Positions 2,609 to 24,945 are shown, counted from the first letter of the stretch. The stretch: DNA of 64,000 nucleotides from Candidatus Omnitrophota bacterium (GCA_043815185.1 JBDRJF010000005.1:3407-67406); one strand, 5' to 3'. Notes: generated by a model not told the origin, from the letters alone. Translations and numbers: made by a program.

Positions 2609-3475
2609 TTACTGACCAACGCTAAATAGACCTTTAGTAATAAAATCCATTATAATCGGGCCGGCCACAATCACCATGATCACTGGCAGAATGCAAAAGA
2701 TCAACGGAATAAGCATTTTTATCGGGGCTTTCACCGCAATTCTCTCTCCGCGGTTAAATCGCCTCATTCGGGAGTCCTCCGAGAGAATCTTAAAGGTCTC
2801 TTCTACCGGAGTGCCCATTTTATCAGCTTGAGCTAAAGTTCTGACAAAAGAAGTCACATCAGCGATATTGAGCCGCTTAGCCATATCTCTCAAAGCCTCG
2901 ACTCGGGGCTTGCCTACATTTATCTCCTTTAAAACAGTTATCAGCTCTTCGATTAAAGGATTAATCTCGACCTTGTTGATAACCCATTTTACTGCCGACA
3001 TAAAGTCTAACCCGGCCCCAACGCAAAGGGCCAGCAAATCTACTGTTTCCGGCAATACTCTGGCTATGGCATACTTTCGTTCATTCACCTTACTATTCAA
3101 AATAATCGACGGCAAAGAAAAGCCGAAAAGAGCCGTTACCCCAAGCCGTAATGCCGAGCTCTGGCCAAAGATAAAGAAAACAATCAGCAGGGAAAAAATA
3201 GCCATCAACTCCTTGACTGACAAGAATTCAGCCGGGCTAATCTTCCACCTGGCTAAAGATATCTTTTCTTTTAAGGATCTTTCCAGGCCCTTTAATAATT
3301 TCAAAATCAATCCGTTAACCGGGAAAAGAATACTTAGAAAAGGAGCAAAAAAAGAGCCCTGTTTTTTCTTCAAGTTATCGCCAAAGACAGAAATCGTATC
3401 CTTAGTTTTAGGTAACAAACCCAGGAAGAATAAAATAAATCCTGCAGCTAAAGCAGCATAGATCAGATAAATCAT
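2609..3475 (-). CDS. tadC: Tad/Flp pilus platform protein, TadC-like (T2SS-F family)
   Basis: 288 aa polytopic membrane protein with a T2SS-F-type cytoplasmic domain (LPETVDLLALCVGAGLDFMSAVKWV ... GTPVEETFKILSEDSRMRR). ATGA overlap with the upstream paralogue. Confidence 0.8.
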   Translation of the reverse strand: MIYLIYAALAAGFILFFLGLLPKTKDTISVFGDNLKKKQGSFFAPFLSILFPVNGLILKLLKGLERSLKEKISLARWKISPAEFLSVKELMAIFSLLIVFFIFGQSSALRLGVTALFGFSLPSIILNSKVNERKYAIARVLPETVDLLALCVGAGLDFMSAVKWVINKVEINPLIEELITVLKEINVGKPRVEALRDMAKRLNIADVTSFVRTLAQADKMGTPVEETFKILSEDSRMRRFNRGERIAVKAPIKMLIPLIFCILPVIMVIVAGPIIMDFITKGLFSVGQ

Positions 3476-4323
3476 ATTTTAATCTTTCCGAATACTACAA
3501 TCAAGATAATCCCTATTATCTGCAAAAAACCAGCCCCGATCAGGAGCAGTTTTCCCAGTTCATTCTGCCACATAACCTCAAAATGACGGGGATTAATCTT
3601 TAAAACAACTAAAGCAAATACCGGCCCAAGAAAAGAAATAATTATCGCCTGTAACCGGGCTTGAAGAGTTAAGGTCTGAACCATTTCTTTTAACTTCGAC
3701 CTGTCTCTTATGGTTTCAATCAGCCGGGAAAATACCTTGGTTAAGTCGCCTCCGGTCTCCCGGGCCACAAGAATGGCTGAAGTAATTAAGGTCATCTCCT
3801 CCGAAGGCATTCTTTTATTCATGCGGGTTAAAGCCTCCTCCAAGCTTACTCCTACCTTTACCTCTCTAACTAACAGCGAAACTTCCTGGCTTATCGGCGG
3901 GCTTACCTCCTCAGCCAAAGACTCAAAAGATTGGATTAAAGTTAAACCGCCTTTAAGGCAGCTGGACAAAATCATTAAGCTGTCGCCGAGTTGAGCGTTA
4001 AATTGAACCCTTCTTTTGATAGCCAGTATCTTTACTAAACAAAAAGGGAGAGCCAGGCCGACAATCATCCCAACGAAACCAATCCAGAGCATTTGGGTTA
4101 ATAAAAACCCTAATATTCCCAAAACTAAAGGCACAACGATATAGAGGGTAACTAAAATATCTTTCCTGAAAAAAATGAACATCTCCTCAAGCTGAGCACT
4201 GGCTTTTTCGGCTTTCTTCTTCTGAGCCTGATCCCAGCTTTTGAGGAAAAAACCTATTCCATAATAGGCAAGGATAGCAAAGGCAGCTATCAGCAGGATA
4301 TAACCAAGTACCAAAGAGTTCAT
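3472..4323 (-). CDS. tadB: Tad/Flp pilus platform protein, TadB-like (T2SS-F family)
   Basis: 283 aa membrane protein with a T2SS-F-type domain (LGDSLMILSSCLKGGLTLIQSFESLAEE ... GGDLTKVFSRLIETIRDR). Paired with the TadC-like gene as in tad loci. Confidence 0.8.
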   Translation of the reverse strand: MNSLVLGYILLIAAFAILAYYGIGFFLKSWDQAQKKKAEKASAQLEEMFIFFRKDILVTLYIVVPLVLGILGFLLTQMLWIGFVGMIVGLALPFCLVKILAIKRRVQFNAQLGDSLMILSSCLKGGLTLIQSFESLAEEVSPPISQEVSLLVREVKVGVSLEEALTRMNKRMPSEEMTLITSAILVARETGGDLTKVFSRLIETIRDRSKLKEMVQTLTLQARLQAIIISFLGPVFALVVLKINPRHFEVMWQNELGKLLLIGAGFLQIIGIILIVVFGKIKI

Positions 4324-4415: not shown

Positions 4416-5342
4416 TTATTTAAGCCTCATCTCCTTTATTTCTCCAGTTTCAGAATCTATACCAACATGTCTTTCTTCTCCGCCTTGCATATTATAAAGA
4501 CTTATAGTTACATAATCTTCTTGCACTGAAATATCGTTGTAATTTATGTTTTTAAACTCTTCGGTTGAGATTCCAAATATTTCAGTTACTTTTTCGGAAT
4601 TATTGGCTAAGGCTTCAAAAGCAGTGTAAACTTTTCGTTGATGTTCTGCAACTTCAGAATTTACCCCGTAAATAAGAGCTGACACCTCATAAGTAGCCTC
4701 ATAAGCTAAATATTCATCTGTAATGACTGCAATGTCAGGGTTTTCTCTCTGATTTATTATGTGTGTTGCTTCATGGGCAATCTTAAATGCCAACCAATTT
4801 GTTTTTTCCTCCTCAGTAACTAAACTTTCAAAGGCATCATAGCCTACAACTATTACACCTGAACCCCTGGGGGCTAAAGCAAGTCCTGGATCATCTAATC
4901 CTTCCAAAAATAATACTGGCACAAATATCCCCTCTGGCAGAATACCATTCGCAATTAGAAAATCATGTGCACCTTTTACAAGATATTCATAGCTATTGGA
5001 GGGAACAAGAGAGTTTTGCAATCTCTCTGCTGACACTCCCCCTAAGATAGTATTTCTATTCAGGGCATCTAATAATTCCTCGAAAGAGAACTTCTGGCCC
5101 TGTAAGAGTATTTCTCCCGGCTCTAATACGTGACTGGGTCCCCATTCGGTTTTTGCGCTTTGAATTTCACTGGTCCCGCCAAAAGGCTGGTATTGCTCCT
5201 CCTGGCCTAAAACATCAGCAGCTTTTTTGTAGCTGCCCTGGACCCTGCGTTTGATATAGACCGACATGGCAATTAAAGCTGTGGCTACTACAGCAATTAA
5301 AAAAGCATACCCCAGAATAGCTTGAGACTTATTTTGCATCAT
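4416..5342 (-). CDS. Pilin-like N-terminus fused to an HExxH (gluzincin-like) putative metallopeptidase domain
   Basis: 308 aa. N-terminus MMQNKSQAILGYAFLIAVVATALIAMSVYIKRRVQG parallels the Flp/TadE-like N-termini at 7788-10870. HEATH at residues 190-194 (nt 4761-4775), then DEYLAYEATYE about 20 aa downstream. 14-nt overlap with the upstream gene. Confidence 0.55.
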   Translation of the reverse strand: MMQNKSQAILGYAFLIAVVATALIAMSVYIKRRVQGSYKKAADVLGQEEQYQPFGGTSEIQSAKTEWGPSHVLEPGEILLQGQKFSFEELLDALNRNTILGGVSAERLQNSLVPSNSYEYLVKGAHDFLIANGILPEGIFVPVLFLEGLDDPGLALAPRGSGVIVVGYDAFESLVTEEEKTNWLAFKIAHEATHIINQRENPDIAVITDEYLAYEATYEVSALIYGVNSEVAEHQRKVYTAFEALANNSEKVTEIFGISTEEFKNINYNDISVQEDYVTISLYNMQGGEERHVGIDSETGEIKEMRLK

Positions 5343-6177
5343 GATAAACTACTGTAATTATAATATCGCCTAAGCCTAAAGAAGTCAAGTCTGGGCCCTC
5401 AAAACCCTCCATTCGAGTAAGATGGATCAGGCAGGCTTTGCCTCCCTGTTTAAACTCTAAACTCACTCCCTCCATGGTTATCCCAGCCATAGCCGCTTTA
5501 GCCTGCTGGGGTATCTTAGGACAAGTAGGGCAATCTTCGACCTTTGATAGATCGTATTGCTCAGAGCCGATAGCTTCCTGATTACTGAGACTCCAGCCTT
5601 GCTGGGGCATCTTCTGAAGATAAAAACCTTTAACTGCTTCTATGCCTCCGCTGGCCATATACCCGGCTTGCAGGCCGGAAGGAGTTTTACGGTAATCTAT
5701 CTGTCGACTCCCGGGATATAGGGGCATAAAATCCAAAGATTTTGGCTTCTCAAACAAACCTAAAGGCTGTCCTTGCTCTGCCCCCAGGCCTTGGGCCTTA
5801 GGGAATTCGCCGACACTAATACTGTAGAAAATAAGCTCTTCGGCCTTAAGCGGAGAGAAGTTTAAAACCAGCATCTGATCCCCTTTAATAAAATTATAGA
5901 CCCGGCCCTGTAAAGGCCCTGGGGCCTGAAGCATTGGTAAATCCAGCTTTCCCCAGCCCTTTTTGCTCAAGTTTTGCTGATAAAACTGGAGAATCTCGCT
6001 TTGGCTCAGAGAAGAACTGTATTGATAAACCGTAAACTGGCTTCCGGATATTTCCTGCTCAGCCTGGCTGGATAAATTAGTCTTAGCCGGTATTGGAAAA
6101 CCAAAGATTTGTGAAAATCCTGAAAAACTGGTTAAAATAAAAAAGACTAAAACAACTGCTACTTTTTTACTATTCAT
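5329..6177 (-). CDS. Secreted protein of unknown function with an internal duplication
   Basis: 282 aa. Signal peptide MNSKKVAVVLVFFILTSFSGFSQ. Two related modules (SEILQFYQQNLSKKGWGKL vs EAVKGFYLQKMPQQGWSLS). Embedded between pseudopilin-like genes. Confidence 0.5.
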   Translation of the reverse strand: MNSKKVAVVLVFFILTSFSGFSQIFGFPIPAKTNLSSQAEQEISGSQFTVYQYSSSLSQSEILQFYQQNLSKKGWGKLDLPMLQAPGPLQGRVYNFIKGDQMLVLNFSPLKAEELIFYSISVGEFPKAQGLGAEQGQPLGLFEKPKSLDFMPLYPGSRQIDYRKTPSGLQAGYMASGGIEAVKGFYLQKMPQQGWSLSNQEAIGSEQYDLSKVEDCPTCPKIPQQAKAAMAGITMEGVSLEFKQGGKACLIHLTRMEGFEGPDLTSLGLGDIIITVVYHDAK

Positions 6178-7787: not shown

Positions 7788-8567
7788 TTAATTTTGCACC
7801 CCAAATACATCCTGTTCAGTTAATGCATCCGGCGTATATACCGGCCAATATAAATCTTTGGGATCAGGAATAACCTCTTCTTGCTCTTCTAATTCAGCGA
7901 TCAGGGTATCTAAGCTGCCTATCTGTTCTCTTAATAAGTCTACGGCTCCCGGCAGGTTATTTGCAATGGCAGCTATGGCTGCATCAGTCTGATCAATAAC
8001 CCCTTGATAACGGTTGATCAGAGGATTAAGGACATTATTGATCCTGTTGTCTATTTCAATTATTCTCGCCTCAATCACAGTTAACCGGGCTTTAATCCAA
8101 TCTATCCGATCCACACAGGGCTCACATTGGCCATCCGGGCAACGCATCAAACAAGTCTGATAAAGTTGTGCCAGTTCAGCTTTTAAAGCGGTCCGCTCAG
8201 TCTCCCAAGCTGTCCGCTCAGTTTCCAAAGCTGCTTTCTCGGCCTTAAGCCGGCTTAAATCACTCTTAATCGGCGCTTTAGAGGCTTCCAATTCTGCTGT
8301 AGTATCATCGGTAAGCGGTTCCGTGGAATCAATTTGAGCCTGCAAAGCATCCCGCTGATCTTTAAGATTTTCCAGATAACTGTTGTCTACGGGCTGGCCG
8401 GAATTTTGGGTTACGGTTCCGGCAACAACCCGGGTCTGACTATATGCCGGCTGGCGCTGGGCAATCTGGCTATCACCCCAGATCCAGATACCGATTATAC
8501 CAAAGAATAAAAATAATCCGATAACTAAAACCAGAACTACCTCTAAAATTGCTTGTGACTTTATCAT
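7788..8567 (-). CDS. TadE/pseudopilin-like protein with a long coiled-coil body
   Basis: Likely start is ATG 8567 (MIKSQAILEVVLVLVIGLFLFFGIIGIWIWG), with a TAATG overlap on the upstream stop; the track start 8585 is GTG. Heptad-rich C-terminal part with a 21-nt tandem duplication (ETERTAW/ETERTAL, about 8190-8235) and a CLMRCPDGQCEPC motif. Confidence 0.5.
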   Translation of the reverse strand: MIKSQAILEVVLVLVIGLFLFFGIIGIWIWGDSQIAQRQPAYSQTRVVAGTVTQNSGQPVDNSYLENLKDQRDALQAQIDSTEPLTDDTTAELEASKAPIKSDLSRLKAEKAALETERTAWETERTALKAELAQLYQTCLMRCPDGQCEPCVDRIDWIKARLTVIEARIIEIDNRINNVLNPLINRYQGVIDQTDAAIAAIANNLPGAVDLLREQIGSLDTLIAELEEQEEVIPDPKDLYWPVYTPDALTEQDVFGVQN

Positions 8568-9142
8568 TATTGACTGGTGTCCCACCCTCTTTGTTTACTG
8601 GTTATTCTGTTCTGGCTAATCGTCTTTATCGGCTTCTCATCGGGATCCCTTAAGGTGTAAGTTAGATTTTCATCAATATCCACTTTATGAACAGAGCTAA
8701 TAAGACTAAGGGTTTCTGTCCGATTAAAACTTTTATCCAGCTTGGTACCGTATTCAAAAACAATATCACCGATCTGGTCATCCTCACTTAAGCTTATCTC
8801 TTCGTCATTAATGTTATAATAAAAGCTTCGGATCTGCTGATCCCCAACATAAGGAACTGACCAGTGAACATAATTTGAAGCACTGAGGTTGGTTCTTTGT
8901 CCGGCTAAAGGAGTATTGATGTCGATATGCCTGCGGTCTTCCAGGGTAGTATAATTAACTATAGCATTCTCATCATGGGCTTTCTTCAAAGCCTGGCGAA
9001 AATTACCCATTAAGGTATATTGCTCATCATTTAAACGCTGGATATAGCTGATCAGTAATGAAAATGCTATTAAAATCAGGGAACCTAAGATTCCTATCTC
9101 TAATACTGCTTGAGCTTTTCGAAAATAGATCGTCTCGGTCAT
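8567..9142 (-). CDS. tadE: TadE-like pseudopilin
   Basis: 191 aa. N-terminus MTETIYFRKAQAVLEIGILGSLILIAFSLLISY (basic leader, AQxxxE, hydrophobic helix). ATGA overlap with the upstream gene. Confidence 0.55.
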   Translation of the reverse strand: MTETIYFRKAQAVLEIGILGSLILIAFSLLISYIQRLNDEQYTLMGNFRQALKKAHDENAIVNYTTLEDRRHIDINTPLAGQRTNLSASNYVHWSVPYVGDQQIRSFYYNINDEEISLSEDDQIGDIVFEYGTKLDKSFNRTETLSLISSVHKVDIDENLTYTLRDPDEKPIKTISQNRITSKQRGWDTSQ

Positions 9143-9528
9143 TCCTGGCTTTCCTCATGGCTTATCAGGGTATCCGGCGGTTGGCTTGTGCCCGGCACAC
9201 CCTGTCCGTAATCTATCTGATCTAAACTCTCTACCTCATGGGTTGAATCCACGGTGTAGGAACTTGAGATACTAAGGCCGCTGCTTCCTCCTCGGCCTTC
9301 ACTTTTCTGGATATTACTGTTAGAAGTGATATTTTTGACAGACTTCTCAGTTACCGGATCATTTAAAGAAGCTAATTGTTTATCACTGATAACAGCATCG
9401 GTTAAGTCTTTTACCCGGGCCTGGATAGCTCTGCGCAAATAAGTATTCATTGTGGCTAAAGCTAAAACCACAAGAATAATCAAAATTACATATTCTGGTA
9501 AAGCCATTGCCCTTTTAAGCCTTGGCAT
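9139..9528 (-). CDS. Flp/TadE-like pilin with a Ser/Thr-rich tail
   Basis: Probable start is ATG 9528 preceded by GGGAGG (track start 9540 is GTG). MPRLKRAMALPEYVILIILVVLALATMNTYLRRAIQARV..., 129 aa. Confidence 0.55.
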   Translation of the reverse strand: MPRLKRAMALPEYVILIILVVLALATMNTYLRRAIQARVKDLTDAVISDKQLASLNDPVTEKSVKNITSNSNIQKSEGRGGSSGLSISSSYTVDSTHEVESLDQIDYGQGVPGTSQPPDTLISHEESQE

Positions 9529-9583
9529 AACGCCTCCCACTTTTACCTTTATCCTGCCGCTTTGCAGATTTTATGCTGGTTGC

Positions 9584-9892
9584 TTATTGGCCCCAGTATT
9601 CATTAGCCAGGACATCTACATCTTCACTAGTTTGCCTATTCTGAGTGGTGTTACTGCCAGAAGTGGTGACTCCGCCTGATAAATTCTCATTACTGGTAGT
9701 AGTACTAGTAACATTGGTTTGGCCTGTAGTGTATCCCGGTGAATATTGCTCTCCCAGTTCGTCAGACGCGGATTTAAGTTTTCCCTGTAAGCCCCTCTTC
9801 AAATAAACCTGCATGGCAATTAAGCCGCCGGCAACTACCGCGGCGATCAGAGCATACTCTAAGGTACTCTGTGCTCTCCTCTTAATCAACAT
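9584..9892 (-). CDS. flp: Flp-like pilin, extended form (102 aa)
   Basis: MLIKRRAQSTLEYALIAAVVAGGLIAMQVYLKRGLQG followed by a Thr/Ser/Gly/Asn-rich tail. GAGGAGG Shine-Dalgarno upstream of the ATG. Confidence 0.65.
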   Translation of the reverse strand: MLIKRRAQSTLEYALIAAVVAGGLIAMQVYLKRGLQGKLKSASDELGEQYSPGYTTGQTNVTSTTTSNENLSGGVTTSGSNTTQNRQTSEDVDVLANEYWGQ

Positions 9893-9926
9893 CTTTATAC
9901 CTCCTCTAACTTCAACTCTCTCCTTA

Positions 9927-10295
9927 TTATTCCTCTATAGTTGAAACATGAGTCTGTTCGGTTGCAGTTGATGTCACTGCAACATCTTGAACGCTATCTC
10001 TAGCCACTGCTCCGCCATCTAAAGTATCGCTGCCGCTGGTGCTGGTAGTGGCACGATTGATACCTGAGGTCCTCTGTTCACTATAATAAGGTTCATATTG
10101 CTTGCTTGTACCCAAAACCGCACCGCTACCGGTAATATCGCCGCTGACACTACTTAAAGCAACTCCGGCATCATGCATCTTAGCCTGTAGAGATCTTTTG
10201 ATATAAACCTGCATGGCTAAGGCTGCTCCCACAATTACCGATATCAATATGGCATATTCTGCGGTAGACTGCGCCTTTCTTAAATTAACCAACAT
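9927..10295 (-). CDS. flp: Flp-like pilin, extended form (122 aa)
   Basis: MLVNLRKAQSTAEYAILISVIVGAALAMQVYIKRSLQAKM followed by a Ser/Thr/Gly-rich tail. AGGAGGTG Shine-Dalgarno. Confidence 0.65.
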   Translation of the reverse strand: MLVNLRKAQSTAEYAILISVIVGAALAMQVYIKRSLQAKMHDAGVALSSVSGDITGSGAVLGTSKQYEPYYSEQRTSGINRATTSTSGSDTLDGGAVARDSVQDVAVTSTATEQTHVSTIEE

Positions 10296-10343
10296 CGCTT
10301 CACCTCCTGATTTTTCGCCTCTGTTTTACCGGTTACTTCCTCT

Positions 10344-10523
10344 TCACTGACCCAGATTAGAATCCATCTTTGAGGTCATTCTCGTCATGGTGTTAGTGGC
10401 ATCAGTAAAGCTCTGTTCTACTGCCGGCCTAACAAGAGTTCTGGCAGCAAATATTATCCCAGCAACGATCGCTGCTAAAATAAGGGTATACTCCAAAATA
10501 CTCTGCGCCTTTGTTAGTCTCAT
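10344..10523 (-). CDS. flp: Flp-type mini-pilin (59 aa), not in ORF track
   Basis: Manual translation: MRLTKAQSILEYTLILAAIVAGIIFAARTLVRPAVEQSFTDATNTMTRMTSKMDSNLGQ*. ATG at 10523 preceded by AGGAGGTGG; TGA at 10344-10346. Confidence 0.7.
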   Translation of the reverse strand: MRLTKAQSILEYTLILAAIVAGIIFAARTLVRPAVEQSFTDATNTMTRMTSKMDSNLGQ

Positions 10524-10542
10524 TCTACTCCACCTCCTAAAA

Positions 10543-10698
10543 TTACCTGATGCTCTCGTTTAACTCTGCCCGCACCTGGGCCAGACGAGCATTCATGGCT
10601 CTTTGAATATATATTTGCATGGCCATTAAGGCCCCGGAAATTATTGCGATTAATGCTGCGTACTCAAGGAAACTCTGGGCTTTAGTTTTTTTGAACAT
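10543..10698 (-). CDS. flp: Flp-type mini-pilin (51 aa), not in ORF track
   Basis: Manual translation: MFKKTKAQSFLEYAALIAIISGALMAMQIYIQRAMNARLAQVRAELNESIR*. ATG at 10698 preceded by GAGGA; TAA at 10543-10545. Confidence 0.7.
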   Translation of the reverse strand: MFKKTKAQSFLEYAALIAIISGALMAMQIYIQRAMNARLAQVRAELNESIR

Positions 10699-10705
10699 CT
10701 TATCC

Positions 10706-10870
10706 TCACTGTAATATTACCTTTACACAACTGTTATAGTGACTAGAAAAACTTTGCTTTAGTTTAGAAAGAAATCCGGTACTAATAATAGCGGCAATCA
10801 CTATAGCAAATATAACTACATATTCAAAAACTATCTGAGCCTGTTTAAATTGTTTATCTTGGGTTCGCAT
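10706..10870 (-). CDS. flp: Flp-type mini-pilin (54 aa), not in ORF track
   Basis: Manual translation: MRTQDKQFKQAQIVFEYVVIFAIVIAAIISTGFLSKLKQSFSSHYNSCVKVILQ*. ATG at 10870 preceded by AGGAG; TGA at 10706-10708. First gene of the pilin array. Confidence 0.65.
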   Translation of the reverse strand: MRTQDKQFKQAQIVFEYVVIFAIVIAAIISTGFLSKLKQSFSSHYNSCVKVILQ

Positions 10871-10982
10871 TCTCTACTCCTAAATAAGAAAACCCACCAT
10901 AGTTCCAATCTTTGCCAAACTTTCGGCAACCCGGCTACTACTCCTTGAAAAAATTGTCTTTATGAATTCCCGGCTTTGCGCT

Positions 10983-10995
10983 CCGCCTTAGGCGG
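10983..10995. repeat. Short hairpin motif CCGCCTTAGGCGG (copy 1 of 2)
   Basis: The 13-nt string is identical to 30173-30185. 5-bp GC stem with a TTA loop. Lies in the leader region upstream of the pilin array. Confidence 0.5.
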
Positions 10996-11106
10996 ATTGC
11001 CTTTTTTGTTGCCTCCCCTAATTACCATATAACTATAACATAAATACCCGAAATATTGCAAGAAAAGAATCGGAAAACTCTGTCCTTTTTGAAAGCGCTT
11101 TAAATT

Positions 11107-12549
11107 TCAAAAAAGAAAAACCCGGCGCTGGTCCAGGTAAAAACACCCTTTATTAAAGGCTTCTTTAGCCTGTTTGGGCATTTTGCTCAGGCTAACCCCA
11201 AGATAATCCTGGCCCCAGACTAAACTTCCGGCTTTATTTTTAGGCTCCCAGCCCCAGATTATCTCTTTAAAAACAGCCGATAAAATTTGGCCCACTCTCG
11301 AGAAATCAAGCATTTCCTTAAAATTTAGCTTCTGAGGCAGCATCTTAGTCAAATAACCCTTATTTTTAGAGGTAGTAACCAGGAATTCCTCAATAGCCCT
11401 CATATCCTCAATAAACCGCTTTTGGGCCTGGGGCCATAAATATAGGTACTTTTTTAAAAAAGAAGCTACTCTTAACTTGTTACGGCTGATGTTGCCGGTA
11501 AGCAGGCCCCAGGTAGGTAGCGAAGCTGCAGCTGGCTTTATGAGGACATTATTTATCATAAGTTGTTGCTTTCCTTCATGTTGCGCAACCTTTGTTAGAA
11601 CTGAAGCACATAAAAGTTCACCGACGCCACCCCAAAAAAAGCTTTTAAAATTTGAGGGTCTAGCTACAAAGCTTATACCCTTAGAAATAGCTTCCGGATA
11701 GTAACCAATAAAAAAGGAGACCTTAGATAAATTTATTCTCTTTTGCTCTATGACTCTGCCCCGAGGATCTAAAAATTCAATCTTTTCTATTCCTTTATCT
11801 ATAGCCTGGAGAAAATCAAAGGTCAAGGGTGAAAGGTAGCCAAAACTCTTAGTATAGCCGATAATAATGGTCTTACTCTCAATCATGCCTTGAATAAGTT
11901 TAGTGGCTGATCTTAAAGGAAGGAAGAATTCTGCTATCCGGCAAGGCCCATTCCAGAAAGTAGACATCTTAGCATCAAAGTAACTGCAATAGCCATTATT
12001 AAAGTAAAATTTTAGGCTTGAAACCAGGATTAAACTGTCTCTTAGAGGGCCCAGGTCTATCTGGGGTTTATGTTGGGAAAGCTGGTGCTGAAAGTAACTC
12101 AGTTTACTGGCCGGCAGGGTCCTTAGCCCGGCTAATCTCAAAAAACCTTCTCTTTGGGCGCTTTTTTGCGGTTGCTCATTAATCAAGGCTGAAAAACTGG
12201 TTAAAATAATTAATTGCTTTAATAAATCCTTGGTTAATTTAGGGAAATAATTTTTAAGCTCCTGGCTTAAATAATCGAATATACCGACTTGATAATCCAG
12301 GCAGCGAAGCAGGAATAATCCGCAATGCTCAAGAGTCCGGCCCTTATAAATAAGTAAGGATTTCTTACGGCCCCTTTTTTCTTTGAGGCCGGAGGAGGTA
12401 AGAATTTTATTAACTGCGCTTTTAGAGATAGTAATTTTATGTTTCTGCTGCAGCAGCCCAGATAAAAGCCTAACCCCCAGATGAGGAGCACGTCTTTTCT
12501 CTTGAAGCACTATTTTTCTTAGCGCAGGAGTTACTATTCTTTTTGGCAT
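11107..12549 (-). CDS. Hypothetical 480-aa protein with an N-terminal transposase-type helix-turn-helix
   Basis: N-terminus LRKIVLQEKRRAPHLGVRLLSGLLQQKHKITISKSAVNKILTSSGLKEKRGRKK resembles the HTH seen at the start of IS481/IS3-type transposases. I cannot recognise a DDE/rve core in the remaining ~400 aa, and no terminal inverted repeats are seen. Confidence 0.4.
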   Translation of the reverse strand: MPKRIVTPALRKIVLQEKRRAPHLGVRLLSGLLQQKHKITISKSAVNKILTSSGLKEKRGRKKSLLIYKGRTLEHCGLFLLRCLDYQVGIFDYLSQELKNYFPKLTKDLLKQLIILTSFSALINEQPQKSAQREGFLRLAGLRTLPASKLSYFQHQLSQHKPQIDLGPLRDSLILVSSLKFYFNNGYCSYFDAKMSTFWNGPCRIAEFFLPLRSATKLIQGMIESKTIIIGYTKSFGYLSPLTFDFLQAIDKGIEKIEFLDPRGRVIEQKRINLSKVSFFIGYYPEAISKGISFVARPSNFKSFFWGGVGELLCASVLTKVAQHEGKQQLMINNVLIKPAAASLPTWGLLTGNISRNKLRVASFLKKYLYLWPQAQKRFIEDMRAIEEFLVTTSKNKGYLTKMLPQKLNFKEMLDFSRVGQILSAVFKEIIWGWEPKNKAGSLVWGQDYLGVSLSKMPKQAKEAFNKGCFYLDQRRVFLF

Positions 12550-18301: not shown

Positions 18302-19363
18302 TTAGTCTGAGAAGGCCTTATCGCCAAGTAGATCTAGCTTCTGGAAGTCAGCAAAGAATTTGGGATACATCCTCATGGTAGTGGTAAATTTTCCCTTTAT
18401 CTTGCCGTCAGGGTTCTTACCTTCAGCCTTAAATACAAATAGGTTTTGAATGGTAATTTCTCCCCGCTCGAGATCTCTTACTTCACTAATATGAGTTATG
18501 CGGCGAGAACCATCAAGAAATCTTTCTTGCTGAACAATTATATCTACAGTATTGGCAATCATCTTTCTTATTTCCCCGATTGGCAATTTTATCCCTGAAG
18601 AAAGTATCATTGTCTCCAGACGGCTGACTATTTCCTGGGGAGAATTACCGTGGACTACTGCTAAGGTGCCTTTATGTCCGGTAGACATAGCCTGAATCAT
18701 ATCTATTGCTTCCGCGCCTCTTACTTCACCGACAATAATTCTATCCGGCCGCATCCGCAAAGCATTTCTGATCAAATCCCGCAAAGTAACTTCACCCTTA
18801 CCCGCCTCATCGGGAGAACGTGTCTCTAGCGAAACTAAATTCTTATGATGGAGTTTAAGTTCCGCGGTATCCTCTATGGTAACTATCCGCTCATCTTTGG
18901 GAATATGGAAGGAAAGCATCTCCAGGGTGGTAGTCTTTCCTGCACCAGTTGCTCCGGAGAAAAGTATGTTTAGGCGCCCCTTGATACAGGCAATTAAAAG
19001 CTCAGCCATCTTTTGACTTAAGGTCCCTTTGGCTGTTAAATCATCGAGGCTCTTTATCTCTTGAGAGAATTTTCTGATTGTAATTGCCGCTCCCAGGCGA
19101 GCTAAGGGGCTGATTATAACGTTGACTCGGGAACCATCTTCTAAACAAATGTCAGCGTAAGGGGAGGCAACAGATACGTTTCGCCCGCCCTTCTTAAAAA
19201 CCTCATCAATCACTTCTTTTATCTCTTGAGGATTAAAAATCACATCTATACTCTTCTTTCTGCCTGCTACTTCGATAAAAGTAGCCTGAGAGCCATTGAC
19301 CATGATCTCAGTAATAGCTGGGTCGCCCAATAACTTTTTGATTTTTGTTGCTCCGTCTGGCAT
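18302..19363 (-). CDS. cpaF: CpaF/TadA-type secretion ATPase, stand-alone paralogue
   Basis: Walker [67 protein letters not shown]. Probable start is ATG 19363 (MPDGATK), 4 nt after the upstream stop; the track start 19429 overlaps the upstream gene. Confidence 0.85.
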
Positions 19364-19367
19364 AGTA

Positions 19368-21533
19368 CTAATCCTTAGTAATAAATATTTCTCGCGGCAA
19401 ATCGATACCCCTGGCCTGTATTTCTTCATAAAAAGATGGGATATAACCTAAAGGAGTAAATTTTCCTAAAACTCCTCCCTGAGCATCCACCCCGGTTTGA
19501 GAAAACCTAAAAATATCCTTAAGGTCTATATGAACATCATCGAGCATACCGACAACTTCGGCGATTTGGACAACTTTACGCGAACCGTCGGAAAGACGGG
19601 CAACATGCACTATTAAATCTATGGCTGATGAAACCATCTCCCTGATAGAACGAATGGGAAGTTCTATCCCGCTCATTAAAATCATGCTATCTAATCTTAT
19701 TAAAACATCCTGGGTGGAATTGGCGTGGATGGTCGATAAGCTTCCGTCATGGCCGGTATTCATTGCTTGAAGCATATCCAAAGCTTCACCGCCCCGGGAC
19801 TCACCGACAATTATTCTATCCGGACGCATCCGTAAGGTATTCCGGAATAAATCTTTTATGGTGATCCCGCCCTTACCCTCTATATTCGGCGTCCGGGATT
19901 CAAGCCTGATCCAATGAGCTTGATCTAATTTCAATTCGGCCGAATCCTCAATAGTAACTATCCGTTCACCCTCGGGGATAAATGAGGAAATAATGTTAAG
20001 TAGGGTGGTTTTTCCCGAACCGGTACCGCCGGAAACCAATATGTTTTTCCGGGATTTTACTGCCGCATCTAAGAATTTGGCCATCCCCGGACTTAGACTA
20101 TCGAACTTTTGTATTAAATCTTCCACAGTAAAACGTTTCTGAGAAAACTTTCTGATAGTTAAAGTCGGCCCGGTTAAGGAAAGCGGCGGGATTAAAGCAT
20201 TTACCCGGGAACCATCAGGAAGCCGAGCGTCAACATAAGGAACAGATTCGTCAATCCTGCGGCCCAAAGGAGCAAGAATCCGCTCAATTACTACCTTGAC
20301 TTGTTCATTGGTGGTAAACCTTTTACTGGTTAATTCTAATTTACCTTTTTTTTCTATATAGACCTGATCCTTATTATTAACCATAATTTCAGTAATTGAA
20401 GGGTCGCCAATTAAATCCTCTAAGGGGCCAAAACCCAAAGCCTCATCCAGGATCTCCTTAGTTACTTGCTTTCTAATCTCCAAAGAAGAAATAAATCCTC
20501 CGGCTTCCTTGCTGATAATATTGGAAATTATCCTTTCGGCCCTCTTCCTTAACTCTTCAGCTTTAGCAGCGTGGGCCATAAAGGCATCTACCGATAAATT
20601 CTTTAAGTCTAACTCGGTGATAAGTCTCTGGTGAACCCTGCGCTTAAATCTTATTATCTGGTCCTCTTCTTCCTGCAGGGTAGTCTTCTTAGCCTCTCCA
20701 CTGGCATAACTCTTCTGCCAAAAAACCCCATTATGCCCCCCCTCTTCTTTAGCCACTCTGATATCAGCAAGACTCTTATGCTCTATGTATAGGTCTTTTT
20801 TGCCGATAAGCAGATCAGCTAATTTATTAAGTGCCAGGGCAGCTTTAGAATTGGGGCTATCAATAACTACCGGTATTCCCCGATTAACAGCTAAACCGAT
20901 AGTCCTTCCCTCAGAAGGTATCAAAGCAATAACCTCTGACGGCAGAAGCATTTTTATCTCTTGCCAACTTATCGAGCCTTTACTTTCGGCCCGATTAAGA
21001 ATTATCTTAATCATCTTGAGCGGAAAACCTAAACTCTGTAAGGTATCAAGAAGCCATTCGGTTTGATAAACCGATAGGATATCAGGGGTAAGAATTAAAA
21101 AAATAATATTGGAGGAATCAAGGGTAGCAATCAGATTATCGCTTAAATTGCTGCCGGCATCTATAAGTACGTAGTCAAATTCTCTGCTGATAACTGAAAT
21201 AAAATCCTTTATCCCCTGATCGGTTATCTGGGCACCTTGAGATATTTTAGAAATGGCTGGTAAGAAAAAAAGATTATTCTTATAGCAGCCTATGTAATTG
21301 CGAATGTTTCTTTTTTTACTTTTAAATTCGCCCAGGTGTCCGATTAAATTAAATAAGCTGTACTTACTCTTAGTTCCCAAGAGTTTAGAAGTTTCCTGGG
21401 GGGCTCCTAAGCCTAAATCCAGATGAAATACTTTCTTGTTTTTTAGGGCCAGGCTGACTGCTAGATTTAAAGAAATAAGGGTTTTACCTACCCCTCCCTT
21501 GGTGCTAAAGAAAGAAATTACTCTCGATTCCAT
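19368..21533 (-). CDS. Fusion protein: ParA/MinD-like (CpaE/TadZ-like) N-terminal domain + CpaF/TadA ATPase
   Basis: 721 aa. Residues 1-~260 carry the deviant Walker A FFSTKGGVGKTLISLNLA. The C-terminal ~400 aa carry [66 protein letters not shown]. Confidence 0.8.
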   Translation of the reverse strand: MESRVISFFSTKGGVGKTLISLNLAVSLALKNKKVFHLDLGLGAPQETSKLLGTKSKYSLFNLIGHLGEFKSKKRNIRNYIGCYKNNLFFLPAISKISQGAQITDQGIKDFISVISREFDYVLIDAGSNLSDNLIATLDSSNIIFLILTPDILSVYQTEWLLDTLQSLGFPLKMIKIILNRAESKGSISWQEIKMLLPSEVIALIPSEGRTIGLAVNRGIPVVIDSPNSKAALALNKLADLLIGKKDLYIEHKSLADIRVAKEEGGHNGVFWQKSYASGEAKKTTLQEEEDQIIRFKRRVHQRLITELDLKNLSVDAFMAHAAKAEELRKRAERIISNIISKEAGGFISSLEIRKQVTKEILDEALGFGPLEDLIGDPSITEIMVNNKDQVYIEKKGKLELTSKRFTTNEQVKVVIERILAPLGRRIDESVPYVDARLPDGSRVNALIPPLSLTGPTLTIRKFSQKRFTVEDLIQKFDSLSPGMAKFLDAAVKSRKNILVSGGTGSGKTTLLNIISSFIPEGERIVTIEDSAELKLDQAHWIRLESRTPNIEGKGGITIKDLFRNTLRMRPDRIIVGESRGGEALDMLQAMNTGHDGSLSTIHANSTQDVLIRLDSMILMSGIELPIRSIREMVSSAIDLIVHVARLSDGSRKVVQIAEVVGMLDDVHIDLKDIFRFSQTGVDAQGGVLGKFTPLGYIPSFYEEIQARGIDLPREIFITKD

Positions 21534-21537: not shown

Positions 21538-23133
21538 TTAATCTATCTCGTAAACGATGGGTATATCAATCCATATATCTTTTAGCTCAATATCAGGAGG
21601 AAAAGACGGGTAGGGGCTTAGAGATTTAACCACTTTTAATACACTATCGTCAAAAGAAAGATAATTTGAGGATTGGCTAATCTGAGCATCCATAAGCTCG
21701 CCTTTGCGGTTAAGATGCAACTTTATCTTCATTGACCCCTGCCAACCGGCATCCTGAGCCAGGCGGGGATATTCCAAAGACTGAAAGATAGTTTTTTGAA
21801 TTTCTAAAATATAATTATTTAAACCAGCTTCTTCGGCTAGATACTGAGGATTAACTTTTAACCTTGCAGATGAAAAATCTTCTCTGCCGGTTACGATCTT
21901 ATCTTCACTTTTTTCGTCCGTCTCCACCAGCCTGGGAACAATAGAAATCACTAGCTCGGTTTGGTCATTCTGATAATCTTTAGACCTAAAAAGTGCTCCT
22001 AAGATAGGAATATCACCTAAGCCGGGAACTTTACTAATGTCATCTTTAGTAACTTTATCTTTAAATAGACCGGCGATAACAACCCCCTGGCCGGATCTAA
22101 GGTTCAAGACAGTAGAAGTACTCCTGGTAGCAAAAGATTTGATGGTTGTGCCGTCAGCGCGTTCGTATTGGCCCTCGGTAGATAACTCCTTTACCTCGGT
22201 AACTAAATTTACCTTTATATCGTCTCCTCTGAGAACAACCGGTTGAATATTTAATTTTACCCCGTATTCTTTATATTCTATGTCTTCAGCCACGGTATCG
22301 CCGGAAGAAGAGGAACTGACTTTAACTATTGGAACTTCTCCTCCGACTAAAAAACTAGCCTCCTCCCCGGATAAACATAGAAGCTTTGGTTTAGCTAAAA
22401 TTTTACCCTTGCCCTCTTTAGCGGCAGCCATAATCTGAACATCCAGGGCTGATCTGGTAATATCTACAATCCTAAAAACATCTTTAAATTTTCCGGTTGA
22501 GGCCGCAGAAGTAAGCTGATTTACAGCTGTCGGTGAAGAACCCGAGGTTCCGGTCCAGTCAAGGCCAAAAACTTCCGAAAAACTCTTAGTTAATTCTAAA
22601 ATATGGCATTCTATCTCTACCATCCGGCGCTCTTCTTTTACTAATAACAAGTTATCAATACTTTCGGTGAAAGGCGCAAGTATTGTTTCTATCTGGCCCC
22701 TCTCGACGGCAGTTACCTCTCCGATGACCATTACCTTACCGGTGGCATCATTCTTTTTAAAACTCACATTTTTCATTTTTAGTCTTTTGTTAATTGCCCT
22801 AGCTAATATTTTAGCCAAAGCATCGGGATCATTAGCATAAACGGTAATATAAAACAGTTTTTCTCCCTCCCTGTCCCATACTGTCAGAATAGTGCTTCCT
22901 GACTGCTTAGCTAAAAGTATTATTTCTTCAGTCGATACCGAGTCGACATCGGCTATCTCAGGATTTCTGACTGAAACTCTTTTCGGCGAGACTACCTCTA
23001 TTGCCTTAACTTCTCCTGTTACCATAAATATATCGCCGCTCTCCTCTTCTAGATCCAGAAATTGGCCAAAGGCGCTTTGAGAAGTAATTAGGGCTGTACA
23101 AACTAGTATTTGGAAAAATAATTTTCTTAGCAT
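21538..23133 (-). CDS. cpaC: CpaC/RcpA-type secretin with a C-terminal TonB_C-like domain
   Basis: 531 aa. Signal peptide. Secretin core (VPGLGDIPILGALFRSKDYQNDQTELVISIVPRLV). The last ~90 aa (nt ~21538-21816) read YPRLAQDAGWQGSMKIKLHLNRKGELMDAQISQSSNYLSFDDSVLKVVKSLSPYPSFPP, a TonB C-terminal-type pattern. Confidence 0.75.
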   Translation of the reverse strand: MLRKLFFQILVCTALITSQSAFGQFLDLEEESGDIFMVTGEVKAIEVVSPKRVSVRNPEIADVDSVSTEEIILLAKQSGSTILTVWDREGEKLFYITVYANDPDALAKILARAINKRLKMKNVSFKKNDATGKVMVIGEVTAVERGQIETILAPFTESIDNLLLVKEERRMVEIECHILELTKSFSEVFGLDWTGTSGSSPTAVNQLTSAASTGKFKDVFRIVDITRSALDVQIMAAAKEGKGKILAKPKLLCLSGEEASFLVGGEVPIVKVSSSSSGDTVAEDIEYKEYGVKLNIQPVVLRGDDIKVNLVTEVKELSTEGQYERADGTTIKSFATRSTSTVLNLRSGQGVVIAGLFKDKVTKDDISKVPGLGDIPILGALFRSKDYQNDQTELVISIVPRLVETDEKSEDKIVTGREDFSSARLKVNPQYLAEEAGLNNYILEIQKTIFQSLEYPRLAQDAGWQGSMKIKLHLNRKGELMDAQISQSSNYLSFDDSVLKVVKSLSPYPSFPPDIELKDIWIDIPIVYEID

Positions 23134-23149: not shown

Positions 23150-23956
23150 TTACTTAGATAGAGAAACCTCTTCTTTTTGAGTTCCTTTATAAACTTCCAG
23201 GGTCGCTTTCTTCTCTTCTACCTGAGGGGGCTGAGCCCACATACCCAACCTCCGCATAAGCGTCTCAAAAGTAACTGCTGAATAACCGACTTCTTGAGAA
23301 GAATCCAGGGGGGCTCGCAGAACCAATCGAATTTTATTACCGGATTCTAAGACAAAGGTAAGTAGTTTTATATCTTCGGGTTTAAGAGCAATTGTAACTG
23401 TCTCAGCTGAACTCTCTATCCGGTAAGGAGAAATATTCTTGCCGGTAGCCAGAATCTTTACTCCCTGGAAAAGGGTAACTACCAGGTTTTGCCCGGCTTG
23501 AATCGCAAAAGTCCCGATAATATCCACATGATCGCTGGGTTTCATTAACCCTTCGACAGAAGAAATTTTATCTACCGGTATGGTTATCGCCCGCATACCT
23601 TTAGGAATTCTTTGAGAAAGAAACTGAGCCCCGCTTACACTGCCAATCATATTGTTGTTTATATGCTGTCCTTTTAAAATATCTACCCTGGCTATTTTCC
23701 CTACCGCTGACTCTATGGCGGTCAGGTCTCCGGGCTGATAAGCAGTAGAGCGAATTCGGCTTAAGGCCACCGTATCCTGATCAATAGCGCTCTCTTTAGA
23801 AATATCCACCCTAGCGGTTACTACTTCTAATATTTCACCTTTGTTATAAAGCTGCTGGATCAGTTTCTGATCTTCCTGCATTTTGGTATGAATTAGCAGT
23901 ATAGCAACAACCGCTAAGCCAATTCCGATTATCAGATTTAAAACTCTCTTATCCAT
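23150..23956 (-). CDS. cpaB: CpaB/RcpC-like Flp pilus assembly protein
   Basis: 268 aa. N-terminal TM (LNLIIGIGLAVVAILLI), a SAF-like segment (EVVTARVDISKESAIDQDTVAL), then an RcpC-like beta-rich region. Directly upstream of the secretin. Confidence 0.7.
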   Translation of the reverse strand: MDKRVLNLIIGIGLAVVAILLIHTKMQEDQKLIQQLYNKGEILEVVTARVDISKESAIDQDTVALSRIRSTAYQPGDLTAIESAVGKIARVDILKGQHINNNMIGSVSGAQFLSQRIPKGMRAITIPVDKISSVEGLMKPSDHVDIIGTFAIQAGQNLVVTLFQGVKILATGKNISPYRIESSAETVTIALKPEDIKLLTFVLESGNKIRLVLRAPLDSSQEVGYSAVTFETLMRRLGMWAQPPQVEEKKATLEVYKGTQKEEVSLSK

Positions 23957-23964: not shown

Positions 23965-24945
23965 TTAGTTAATCAAACCGCTGTTTATAACCGTATTCGG
24001 TTCGAATCTAGATCTTACTGCCCCCATCAATTGGCCGATAGAATCCATACTCTTATTCTGAAGCAAGATATACTCTAACTCGTTGTATACCTCATCCAGA
24101 GATTGAGGTACTCCTTTTTGGACATCATCAACCTTAAGAATATAATACTCCTCCTTGACCGGATCTTTAAAAACGCTGGAGGTGCCATCTTTATCTAAAC
24201 TAAAAGCCACTTCCCAGAACTTGGGAAATTTTAATCCTGGTTGTCTTACTAAATATTCCTGGTCGTTATGTTTTAGCAGCCCGCCGGCTGCTGCACTCTC
24301 AGTGAGAGAGTGCTGTGAGGCTAATTCATTAAAGTTACTTCCGCTAAGCAGCTGGATTAATAAATCCTTGGCTTTAGATTCTGAATCTACTACGATTTCC
24401 CTGATTTTTCTTCTCTCTATGCTCTCTAAAGTTCTTTTGTAGTCGTTATTATATAAATCCTCTACCTCTATGGGGGTTACATTAATATCCTTAAGGGTAT
24501 TTTTGAGCAAGGAAAAACCAAGAATCTCGACTGTGCTTTTTCTTATACCCTTTACCACTTCCGGGTCTCGATCTAATCCCCGCAGTTTAGCTTCTTGAGC
24601 TAGTAACTCCTGATTAATCATAAGTTCTAAATAAATCTTTTTGGTCTCAGGGGAGCTTAAATCAATCCTCTCCACTTGGGGAGATAGGAATGTACCGGCT
24701 AAAACTCCTAATGCCTGTACCGGAATTTTAGTGTTTCCTCCGTTGAGCTTAATCAACATATCTACCTGCTGATCAAACTCATCAATGGTTAATACCCAAT
24801 CATTTATTTTAACCAAAATAGGGCTGGTTGGTCCGATTACAGGAGTGGTTGGCGGAGAAACTTTCCTAAAACTAGGTAAGAGATCACAACCTAAGAAACT
24901 CAAGGCAAAAACAACGGCTACAATAACAAAATATATCCTTTTCAT
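23965..24945 (-). CDS. Lipoprotein peptidyl-prolyl isomerase (parvulin/SurA-PrsA-like)
   Basis: 326 aa. Lipobox SFLGC. Parvulin-like segment REIVVDSESKAKDLLIQLLSGSNFNELASQHSLTESAAAGGLL. First gene of the machinery operon. Confidence 0.6.
   Translation of the reverse strand: MKRIYFVIVAVVFALSFLGCDLLPSFRKVSPPTTPVIGPTSPILVKINDWVLTIDEFDQQVDMLIKLNGGNTKIPVQALGVLAGTFLSPQVERIDLSSPETKKIYLELMINQELLAQEAKLRGLDRDPEVVKGIRKSTVEILGFSLLKNTLKDINVTPIEVEDLYNNDYKRTLESIERRKIREIVVDSESKAKDLLIQLLSGSNFNELASQHSLTESAAAGGLLKHNDQEYLVRQPGLKFPKFWEVAFSLDKDGTSSVFKDPVKEEYYILKVDDVQKGVPQSLDEVYNELEYILLQNKSMDSIGQLMGAVRSRFEPNTVINSGLIN

Follow-up and report, generated by a model that had tools for sequence, protein, structure and literature searches.

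Close counterparts have been described in the same phylum. Two articles report that a Tad complex has been published for Omnitrophota and is expressed in V. archaeovorus (Seymour et al. 2023, PMC10066038), and that a conserved secretion locus lies upstream of Omnitrophota giant genes, with gspD/E/F homologues, rcpC, a Rotamase_2 peptidyl-prolyl isomerase (PPIase), and "many small genes with class III signal peptides" as part of that locus type (West-Roberts et al. 2023, 10.1101/2023.11.21.568195). Here we analyze a stretch of 64,000 nucleotides (nt) from a Candidatus Omnitrophota metagenome-assembled genome (MAG; GCA_043815185.1, JBDRJF010000005.1:3407-67406), referred to below as the window, and specifically the row of small genes at positions 10870-9139. 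The architecture of the window locus matches the published giant-gene-linked locus exactly, PPIase included, and we therefore regard it as a further member of the kind already described. The row of small genes most probably supplies the pilins of a filament machine of Tad type (type IVc).

The initial annotation, made from the window alone, had recognized a tandem array of Flp-like pilin genes, and the details on which it relied are accurate. The nine N-terminal motifs that it quoted are all correct, and the six open reading frames (ORFs) of the array, P1-P6 (Table 1), are each found at the coordinates it gave, with a Shine-Dalgarno box (GGAG, GAGGA, or AGGAGG) 4-10 nt 5' of every ATG. These proteins combine a basic leader with the pattern [A/S]-Q-x-x-x-E-Y and a hydrophobic helix, P6 having MALPEY at that site. 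The Flp motif, G/XXXXEY, has Gly at -1, Glu at +5, and Tyr at +6, followed by a hydrophobic stretch; Glu5-Tyr6 and the helix are present in P1-P6, the -1 residue in these is Ala, not Gly, and orthologues elsewhere carry Gly. Set beside the N-terminal motif of the Class_IIIsignal family (PF04021), QxSxExxxL, the proteins have Gln at +1 and Glu at +5, with Ser at +2 and not at +3. A strict form of the motif (a basic residue, [GAS]Q-xxx-E-[YFIVLM], 14 uncharged hydrophobic residues, and Met no more than 25 amino acids (aa) upstream) occurs seven times in the six-frame translation of the window, always on the minus strand between 8558 and 10840, whereas the mean over 200 mononucleotide shuffles is 0.01 and that over 200 three-base-block shuffles is 0. 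The stop of P6 overlaps the start of P7 as ATGA, and the stop of P7 likewise overlaps the start of P8; because of these overlaps and the small gaps elsewhere, the pilin block looks like one operon.

The assignment to the Flp-like, class III signal-peptide type is upheld by recurrent sub-threshold Pfam matches and by Tad machinery in the window and its relatives. In profile tests of 28 family members from four genomes (E <= 0.1), Class_IIIsignal matched nine (best E 4.8e-6) and Flp_Fap eight (best E 4.6e-5), and precomputed PF04021 matches exist on two P5 homologues. Searches with Flp- and TadE-type hidden Markov models, which the initial annotation had proposed as a check, place Flp_Fap and Class_IIIsignal below threshold in the window and Tad (PF13400) above it for the TadG-like protein; this 495-aa protein, listed in GenBank as 'pilus assembly protein TadG-related', is the only TadE/F/G candidate above threshold. 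No N_methyl (GspG-type) match was obtained at E <= 1 for any of the ten proteins, in which the +1 residue is Gln, or Met in P6. P1 (54 aa), P2 (51 aa), P3 (59 aa), and the terminal pilin of relatives (60 aa) have the size of Flp prepilins (~50-90 aa), which P4-P6 exceed (102-129 aa). TadA/CpaF, TadB, TadC, RcpA/CpaC, RcpC/CpaB, and TadZ/CpaE are all encoded in the window, and the host, rather than an archaeon with EppA, is a bacterium whose genes include a secretin and others of bacterial type. In relatives, CpaB, secretin, ATPase, TadB, and TadC adjoin the array in 25-29 of the 30 loci with full 10-kb flanks, and it is because this machinery accompanies the array that the Tad-type assignment is well supported. 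That the pilin-like genes encode Flp/class-III-type pilins of a Tad-like machine is likewise a well-supported prediction.

These relatives come from a scan with P5, taking one genome per species (252 genomes with a P5 relative; 80 loci fetched, 88 fetched loci overall, handles L001 onward). Most of the 80 loci are named Omnitrophota or Omnitrophica, and nearly all others are labelled Planctomycetia/Planctomycetales or carry no label; the closed genome of V. archaeovorus LiM is among them.

P1-P3 had been put forward as real genes that were invisible to the ORF track. Their reality is confirmed, as they are called in syntenic relatives and evolve with ratios of nonsynonymous to synonymous substitution rates (dN/dS) of 0.04-0.30. 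Specifically, L001, L004, and L005 are syntenic with the window and identical in gene order (P5 identity 87%, 77%, and 65%, respectively), and at the same positions they encode P1/P2/P3 of 54/51/59, 54/51/59, and 56/49/66 aa. Pairwise dN/dS is 0.16-0.27 for P1, 0.04-0.09 for P2, and 0.20-0.30 for P3, the flanking genes falling in the same range. Purifying selection and conservation are seen for every array gene in these relatives, and P2 is the most conserved paralogue. The short genes do lie below the cut-off of that track, but all are annotated coding sequences in GenBank, where the pilin-like ORFs appear as hypothetical proteins ABIE75_02155 to ABIE75_02205; since the MAG record already lists them, it was solely the length cut-off that hid them. 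P5 is 100% identical to ABIE75_02185, a Candidatus Omnitrophota MAG protein.

A further claim was that the residue before the predicted cleavage site is Ala or Ser and never Gly, implying either a peptidase of altered specificity or uncleaved signal anchors. Small pilins of the window's lineage simply have Ala or Ser at -1, and "never Gly" holds for the nine N-termini then listed, but a tenth in the same operon, that of the TadG-like protein (...AYHK-G-QLVPFFIVFII), has Gly, as do 44 of its 48 orthologues. The implication itself is not supported, because Ala and Gly alternate among orthologues and in all paralogue groups. Aligning homologues from relatives at the cleavage site, another check that had been proposed, gives Gly, Ala, or Ser at -1 and a near-invariant Gln at +1. 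A search with P5 returned 129 homologues at E <= 0.001, of which 120 were listed and 119 could be scored at this site: Ala stands at -1 in 63 and Gly in 56, Gln at +1 without exception, and Tyr at +6 in 118. A survey across the phylum (80 genomes; x-Q-xxx-E-[hydrophobic] plus a hydrophobic stretch, with x free) extends this to 590 sites, with Gly at -1 in 311 (53%), Ala in 253 (43%), Ser in 21 (4%), Thr in 4, and Glu in 1, i.e. one of Gly, Ala, and Ser in 585. Gly and Ala are both present in each paralogue group, Ser turns up mainly among P8-like, P1-like, and terminal pilins, and Glu occupies +5 in ~97% of the members of groups P1-P5, P7, and P8. For example, the P4 orthologue group, found in 29 of the 30 full related loci, has 49 Ala and 36 Gly; distant orthologues of P1, of P3 (L007), and of P7 (L007 and L029) have Gly, and P1 of L005 has Ser.

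According to reviews, class III leaders end in Gly or Ala (PMC10191384, PMC3244431). On these alignments, Ala or Ser at -1 is best read as ordinary variation, freely exchanged with Gly in relatives, and a position that takes one of the three smallest residues in 99% of sites, and drifts among them between orthologues, is what would be expected of a prepilin-peptidase site; current knowledge of prepilin peptidase specificity is not overturned. The signature is nonetheless distinct from that of the canonical Caulobacter group, because Gly at -1 and Ala at +1 are invariable in the 119 Caulobacter-type Flp pilins compared, a narrow group sharing 74-100% identity. In archaeal EppA-dependent pilins, Gln at +1 is seemingly essential for processing (PMC4390842), and Tad systems descend from archaeal Epd-like systems, the two being sisters (PMC6668835). 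The near-invariant Gln recalls the EppA-dependent pilins and would fit an origin of Tad from Epd-like systems.

Several observations weigh against assigning the array to a Tad filament. No window member reaches the gathering score of Flp_Fap (PF04964, 32.2 bits), so that none is a strict member of the family (P5 and P3 score best), or that of Class_IIIsignal, which in the window matches P1 only (14.6 bits, gathering score 23.7). The best matches of the family profile to solved structures, Caulobacter Tad pilin PilA (8u1k, E 0.56) and a chain deposited as 'Flp family type IVb pilin' (8u2b, E 0.61), are not significant. An AlphaFold2 model of P5 based on 61 homologues has a 40-residue N-terminal helix (residues 10-49) and, after it, a beta hairpin of low confidence; low confidence also applies to the modelled C-terminal parts of P4-P6, and a fold search with the P5 model was fruitless, every match having E > 0.5. 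Matches to the long beta hairpins of pore-forming toxins in that search were set aside as a geometric coincidence of the low-confidence region. Glu at +5 is missing from P6 and from the terminal pilin in some or all lineages (P6 reads ...SNY in L004 and ...FHY in L005), and sequence does not decide which paralogue is the major subunit. Finally, a prepilin peptidase gene is missing from every stretch inspected (the 64-kb window and, in each of the 88 fetched loci, the DNA up to 10 kb from the array): we read all window ORFs of at least 140 aa and searched window and loci for GxGDxK in ORFs with at least three transmembrane segments without success, and none of the listed ORFs with at least four such segments, other than TadB/C-like ones, resembled an A24 peptidase.

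Because no peptidase gene lies in the window or the fetched loci, prepilin cleavage is unproven, and we infer it. The MacSyFinder Tad model lets tadV be encoded apart, and peptidases are shared between systems (PMC6668835). TadV was not found in a Bdellovibrio genome whose Flp pilins are nevertheless functional (PMC5430801), and Myxococcus KilP is processed by an enzyme as yet unidentified (PMC12075869). By analogy, a locus that carries no peptidase gene would not be unusual. A shared PilD is plausible here, because nearly all Velamenicoccia genomes carry type IVa pilus genes (PMC10066038).

Five major-pilin candidates in a row had been called unusual, a view that does not hold for the phylum, in which the median locus has eight pilin-like genes (class-III-like genes per full related locus, range 6-13). 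The paralogue groups have their own C-terminal signatures (P2-like ...RAINARL.Q...EL.ES.R; P4-like ...QYEPYY; P5-like ...GEQYSPGYTT...EYW; terminal ...FGQGEQYQ) and keep their identity despite differing gene order between lineages. To judge from their sequences, the paralogues are old, distinct orthologous groups and not recent copies. Because the groups keep their identity across lineages, the array is no set of five major pilins that could stand in for one another; by analogy with TadE/F/G and the Myxococcus Kil tips and adapters (PMC12075869), the majority probably serve as minor, adapter, or tip subunits. Mature P1-P3 would be 43-53 aa, like Caulobacter PilA, and constraint is strongest on P2, which hints weakly that one of the three is the major subunit, with P2 as best guess by size and conservation. 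In L025 (8834-10330) and L035 (8896-10340), the P4-like/P5-like pair is tandemly duplicated (P4-P5-P4-P5), and because of this duplication the array appears to be still expanding in some lineages.

Upstream of the array, a predicted c-di-GMP-I riboswitch aptamer sits between a promoter-like site and P1. Its score in the window is borderline; an aptamer occurs at the same place in eight loci from seven other genomes (36.3-39.9 bits), which makes it a conserved element even among distant Omnitrophota, lying ~40-50 nt 5' of the first pilin gene in L025, L035, and L078. No aptamer above threshold was found in four of seven further loci, V. archaeovorus included, or in L001, and folding revealed no clear terminator or sequestrator as expression platform (z-score -0.57). 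Public gene calls overlap the aptamer in L007 (9256-9444) and L008 (9125-9376) and are probably spurious. A second, stronger riboswitch of c-di-GMP-I type (57-63 bits) follows TadC in L003, L004, L005, and L008; in L003/L004 it precedes a 335-aa gene and then a 36,007-aa giant gene, and in L008 it directly precedes a 16,746-aa giant gene. A search of window positions 1-2700, past TadC, gave no such element at E <= 1. Cyclic di-GMP (c-di-GMP) can thus be named as a likely regulatory input of this pilus/secretion system.

The last pilin of the block had been listed as an HExxH protein. Its N-terminus is MMQNKSQAILGY (5342-4416), and in L001, L004, and L005 the terminal pilin has 60 aa. Mapping by blastn and repeats places an 818-bp in-frame insertion (~4362-5165) before the last codons of the window's terminal pilin, lower in G+C (38%) and flanked by 14-nt direct repeats (4348-4361 and 5166-5179). 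The HExxH protein is therefore, as these sequences indicate, a terminal Flp-like pilin with an inserted 253-aa module. Of the 44 relatives of the module that an exhaustive search found, 34 have E <= 1e-10 and nearly all are embedded in proteins of 826-6400 aa; among eight whose records were checked, five bear the name Candidatus Omnitrophota/Omnitrophica. HExxH and a downstream Asp-Glu (DE) are invariant across the aligned module sequences, no Pfam family matched the module, and a single-sequence AlphaFold2 model of the 308-aa fusion was unusable (mean confidence score, pLDDT, 47). In other genomes, terminal pilins bear unrelated coiled-coil or Cys-rich C-terminal extensions of 230-415 aa. The terminal pilin looks like a scaffold for lineage-specific modules, and because the extensions differ between genomes a recurrent module-grafting site is suggested. 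Neither the cleavage-site signature with its statistics of Gly, Ala, and Ser, nor a pilin-array c-di-GMP-I riboswitch, nor a modular terminal pilin is found in the passages at hand of the two Omnitrophota papers; we offer the riboswitch and the modular pilin as modest leads added by this work.

Taken together, the locus suggests the following model. A promoter near 11050 would drive a single operon, in which the c-di-GMP-I riboswitch precedes the pilin genes; that there is one transcript is suggested by the gaps and overlaps. The operon holds seven small predicted prepilins (P1-P6 and the terminal pilin), P7, P8, the TadG-like protein, the 282-aa secreted protein, and TadB/TadC, and its prepilins share a short basic leader that ends in a small residue, Gln almost without exception at +1, then Glu and Tyr at +5 and +6, and a hydrophobic helix. 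An A24-family peptidase encoded elsewhere would cut between the small residue and Gln. Homology of the machinery suggests that the TadB/TadC platform and the CpaF ATPases lift mature subunits from the inner membrane, with polymerization through the CpaC secretin. One of P1-P3, possibly P2, would probably be the major subunit; P4-P6, with their Ser/Thr-rich tails, may by analogy be surface-decorating, minor, or adapter subunits, and P7, P8, and the TadG-like protein may together make up a priming tip complex of the kind suggested for TadE/F/G and the Myxococcus Kil tips. Levels of c-di-GMP would gate subunit production through the predicted aptamer.

It is possible, if rather doubtful, that the product is not a long adhesive Tad pilus but a short periplasmic pseudopilus, i.e. 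a piston of type II-secretion kind for export of the large or giant surface proteins whose genes lie downstream. Such a role would suit the giant genes found directly downstream of the locus in L003 and L008, and the second riboswitch, which precedes post-TadC genes (L003/L004, L005) and the giant gene of L008 and for that reason suggests co-regulation of pilin and giant genes. West-Roberts et al. label the locus type II secretion-like (10.1101/2023.11.21.568195), its many minor-pilin-like genes resemble the GspG-K set of the type II secretion system (T2SS), and the window is cut within a signal-anchored Ser/Thr/Asp/Tyr-rich ORF just downstream. The gene content, however, is Tad-like and not Gsp-like (split TadB/TadC, CpaB/RcpC, TadZ-like ParA, CpaF-type ATPases, and a TadG-like protein), and the subunits have the Flp-like Glu5-Tyr6 with no N_methyl match; pseudopilus and pilus functions are, moreover, compatible with each other.

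Two other explanations concern the cleavage site of the proposed Tad pilins. One supposes a dedicated peptidase of shifted specificity, e.g. an enzyme like archaeal EppA, for which Gln at +1 would be the recognized residue and Ala or Ser at -1 acceptable, and we hold it unlikely. The near-invariant Gln is as in EppA-dependent archaeal pilins (PMC4390842), Tad descends from archaeal Epd-like systems (PMC6668835), Class_IIIsignal matches the family as often as Flp_Fap does, and the signature differs from that of the Caulobacter-type pilins. That Caulobacter baseline is, however, a narrow clade, and for prepilin peptidases in general either Gly or Ala at -1 is normal (PMC10191384); since Gly is still the commonest residue there across the phylum and is present in this very locus, no change of specificity is needed. 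The other explanation, that the N-termini are uncleaved signal anchors of ordinary bitopic membrane proteins unrelated to pili, is highly improbable. The lack of a peptidase gene in or near any fetched locus and the sub-threshold scores of all window matches to pilin family models (Flp_Fap and Class_IIIsignal) speak for it, but an anchor needs neither Gly, Ala, or Ser before Gln in 99% of sites nor Glu at +5 in ~97%, and the array is tightly linked to Tad machinery, with an above-threshold TadG-like protein in the same operon.

A bolder combination, which we judge improbable, would be a Tad-derived machine with an archaeal Epd-like signature (small residue plus obligatory Gln) and about ten dedicated pilins, one of them a scaffold for grafted modules (here a putative zinc-peptidase module otherwise found inside giant proteins), whose pilins and giant proteins are co-regulated by c-di-GMP riboswitches. 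If this were true, the filament would serve to deliver or display the functions of giant proteins during predation.

Table 1. Coordinates of the features discussed, in the window unless a related locus (L) is given
Feature	Coordinates	Strand	Remarks
Sigma-70-like promoter candidate, TTGCAA-18-TATAGT	11032..11061	minus	consensus match only; region kept in L001, L004, L005
c-di-GMP-I riboswitch aptamer (predicted), pilin array 5' leader	10922..11011	minus	RF01051 35.5 bits, gathering score 35; borderline
P1, 54-aa Flp-like prepilin	10706..10870	minus	leader MRTQDKQFKQA, then QIVFEY; GenBank MFH1519366.1
P2, 51-aa Flp-like prepilin, mature ~44 aa	10543..10698	minus	MFKKTKA, then QSFLEY; MFH1519365.1
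P3, 59-aa Flp-like prepilin	10344..10523	minus	MRLTKA, then QSILEY; Flp_Fap 16.9 bits, sub-threshold
P4, 122-aa pilin, Ser/Thr/Gly-rich C-terminal part	9927..10295	minus	MLVNLRKA, then QSTAEY
P5, 102-aa pilin, Ser/Thr-rich C-terminal part	9584..9892	minus	MLIKRRA, then QSTLEY; Flp_Fap 23.6 bits (gathering 32.2)
P6, 129-aa pilin-like protein	9139..9528	minus	MPRLKRA, then MALPEY; +1 is Met
P7, 191-aa pseudopilin-like protein, position of TadE	8567..9142	minus	RKA, then QAVLEI; no Pfam match
P8, 259-aa pseudopilin-like protein, coiled-coil C-terminus	7788..8567	minus	MIKS, then QAILEV
TadG-like protein, 495 aa	6287..7774	minus	Pfam Tad PF13400, 29.9 bits (gathering 22.3)
282-aa secreted or lipoprotein-like protein	5329..6177	minus	kept in L001, L004, L005, L007, L008; faint AF_1845 match (precomputed)
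Terminal Flp-like pilin with HExxH module, 308 aa	4416..5342	minus	MMQNKS, then QAILGY
TadB-like platform protein	3472..4323	minus	T2SSF E 5e-22
TadC-like platform protein	2609..3475	minus	T2SSF E 1.5e-13
480-aa protein, N-terminal HTH	11107..12549	minus	directly upstream of riboswitch/array; weak HTH_32 and transposase-type HTH matches only
CpaF/TadA-type ATPase, second copy	18302..19429	minus	T2SSE E 4e-51
CpaE/TadZ-like ParA domain + CpaF/TadA ATPase fusion	19368..21533	minus	AAA_31/CbiA/ParA 4-207, T2SSE 366-650
Secretin (CpaC/RcpA-like) with C-terminal TonB_C	21538..23133	minus	Secretin E 8e-42, T2SS-T3SS_pil_N, TonB_C E 8e-14
CpaB/RcpC	23150..23956	minus	RcpC E 5.5e-18, SAF
PPIase (Rotamase_2) heading locus	23965..24945	minus	same gene heads locus in L007, L008, and as published (10.1101/2023.11.21.568195)
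Array-leader aptamers	L003 6865-6950, L004 5274-5359		RF01051, 36.3 bits
Array-leader aptamer	L005 6878-6963		RF01051, 38.8 bits
Array-leader aptamer	L007 9234-9365		RF01051, 38.7 bits
Array-leader aptamer	L008 9201-9337		RF01051, 36.6 bits
Array-leader aptamer	L025 7681-7819		RF01051, 37.2 bits
Array-leader aptamer	L035 7747-7884		RF01051, 37.3 bits
Array-leader aptamer	L078 8529-8657		RF01051, 39.9 bits
Second riboswitch	L003 14445-14536
Second riboswitch	L004 12854-12945
Second riboswitch	L005 14732-14826
Second riboswitch	L008 19788-19930
Extended terminal pilin	L046 15153		475 aa
Extended terminal pilin	L057 6557		411 aa
Extended terminal pilin	L022 16497		299 aa
Extended terminal pilin	L043 16514		291 aa

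Some gene boundaries in Table 1 depend on the start codon chosen, i.e. P6 has 129 aa from its ATG and 133 aa with an upstream GTG, and the start of P8 was taken from relatives (MRKSQAILEV). P7 and P8 are assigned solely by position and N-terminal motif, the matches of P8 being generic coiled-coil only.

Outside the pilin block, the unusual fusions of ParA with the CpaF ATPase and of secretin with TonB_C recur in L005, L007, and L008. A ~5.8-kb unrelated block (12773-18293, minus strand) lies between the ATPase genes and the pilin module, as it also does in L001/L003, and encodes YraN/UPF0102, a ComM-like Mg chelatase, DprA, an IS200-like Y1 transposase, SpoVG, an anti-sigma-like protein, and an extracytoplasmic function (ECF)-type sigma factor; in L005, the machinery genes are contiguous with the pilin block, and this insert is absent. 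The gene for the 480-aa protein with a helix-turn-helix (HTH) is syntenic in L001-L006 and L008, stands on the opposite strand in L007, and was found by tblastn in 9 of the 30 full loci. A reading of this gene as a transposase was rejected given its synteny across distant relatives and its merely weak HTH matches; the protein may be a regulator or a domesticated transposase. In the position past the Tad locus that giant genes occupy in relatives, an ORF (1-1090, minus strand) runs off the start of the window; it has a signal-anchor-like N-terminus, MVEKRQ...ALAFMIIFCFVYQG, and repeats rich in Ser/Thr/Asp/Tyr. Farther away, the P-loop region of an SMC protein (1616 aa; 39903-44753, minus strand) is interrupted by a LAGLIDADG intein (Intein_splicing E 9e-25, LAGLIDADG_3 E 1e-12).

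With the Tad-type reading, this MAG gains eleven, and other Omnitrophota genomes gain hundreds, of former 'hypothetical proteins' that can be read as a conserved set of Tad-type pilins, and the signature [G/A/S]-Q-x-x-x-E-Y would mark pilins that standard Flp models miss. It also provides a list of candidate filament subunits for the only pilus/secretion system that is consistently linked to giant genes and a predatory lifestyle.

Compared with the Flp pilins of known Tad pili (Aggregatibacter Flp1 and Caulobacter PilA, 8u1k), the window proteins are similar in the very small size of mature P1-P3, in the short basic leader, Glu5-Tyr6, and hydrophobic helix, and in standing beside CpaB, CpaC, CpaE, CpaF, TadB, TadC, and TadE/G-like genes. 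They differ in having Ala or Ser at -1 (Gly, Ala, or Ser in the phylum) where the Caulobacter-type pilins all have Gly, in Gln instead of Ala at +1, and in their Flp_Fap scores, which stay below gathering. The locus also has seven small paralogues and three larger pilin-like proteins, whereas Flp systems have one to three flp genes; three of the paralogues bear Ser/Thr-rich extensions of 60-90 aa, and, unlike Tad loci with tadV, this one has none. The archaeal EppA-dependent (Epd) pilins of PF04021, or UPF0333, share with them Gln at +1, Glu at +5, small size, the presence of several paralogues, and the Class_IIIsignal matches, and the JGI database labels some homologues 'UPF0333 family'. Unlike Epd pilins, those described here belong to a bacterial host with a diderm-type secretin and CpaB, have Tyr at +6, which is an Flp signature, and score below threshold for PF04021.

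The published Omnitrophota giant-gene locus (10.1101/2023.11.21.568195) is alike in that relatives of the present locus adjoin giant genes, and differs in that the unrelated block here splits the ATPase genes from the pilin module. In Myxococcus, the Kil pilins comprise the major KilP, the adapters KilK and KilO, and TadE/F/G-like tip complexes (PMC12075869); searches detected no homology between the tip proteins of Kil or of Bdellovibrio and like organisms (BALO) and those found here. Moreover, the present locus has seven small paralogues, compared with four to six flp genes per BALO genome. Nevertheless, the resemblance to Myxococcus xanthus Kil and to Bdellovibrio-like predators spans a predatory lifestyle, Tad-type machines with several Flp-type pilins, and a peptidase that is not at, or not dedicated to, the locus (PMC12075869, PMC5430801).

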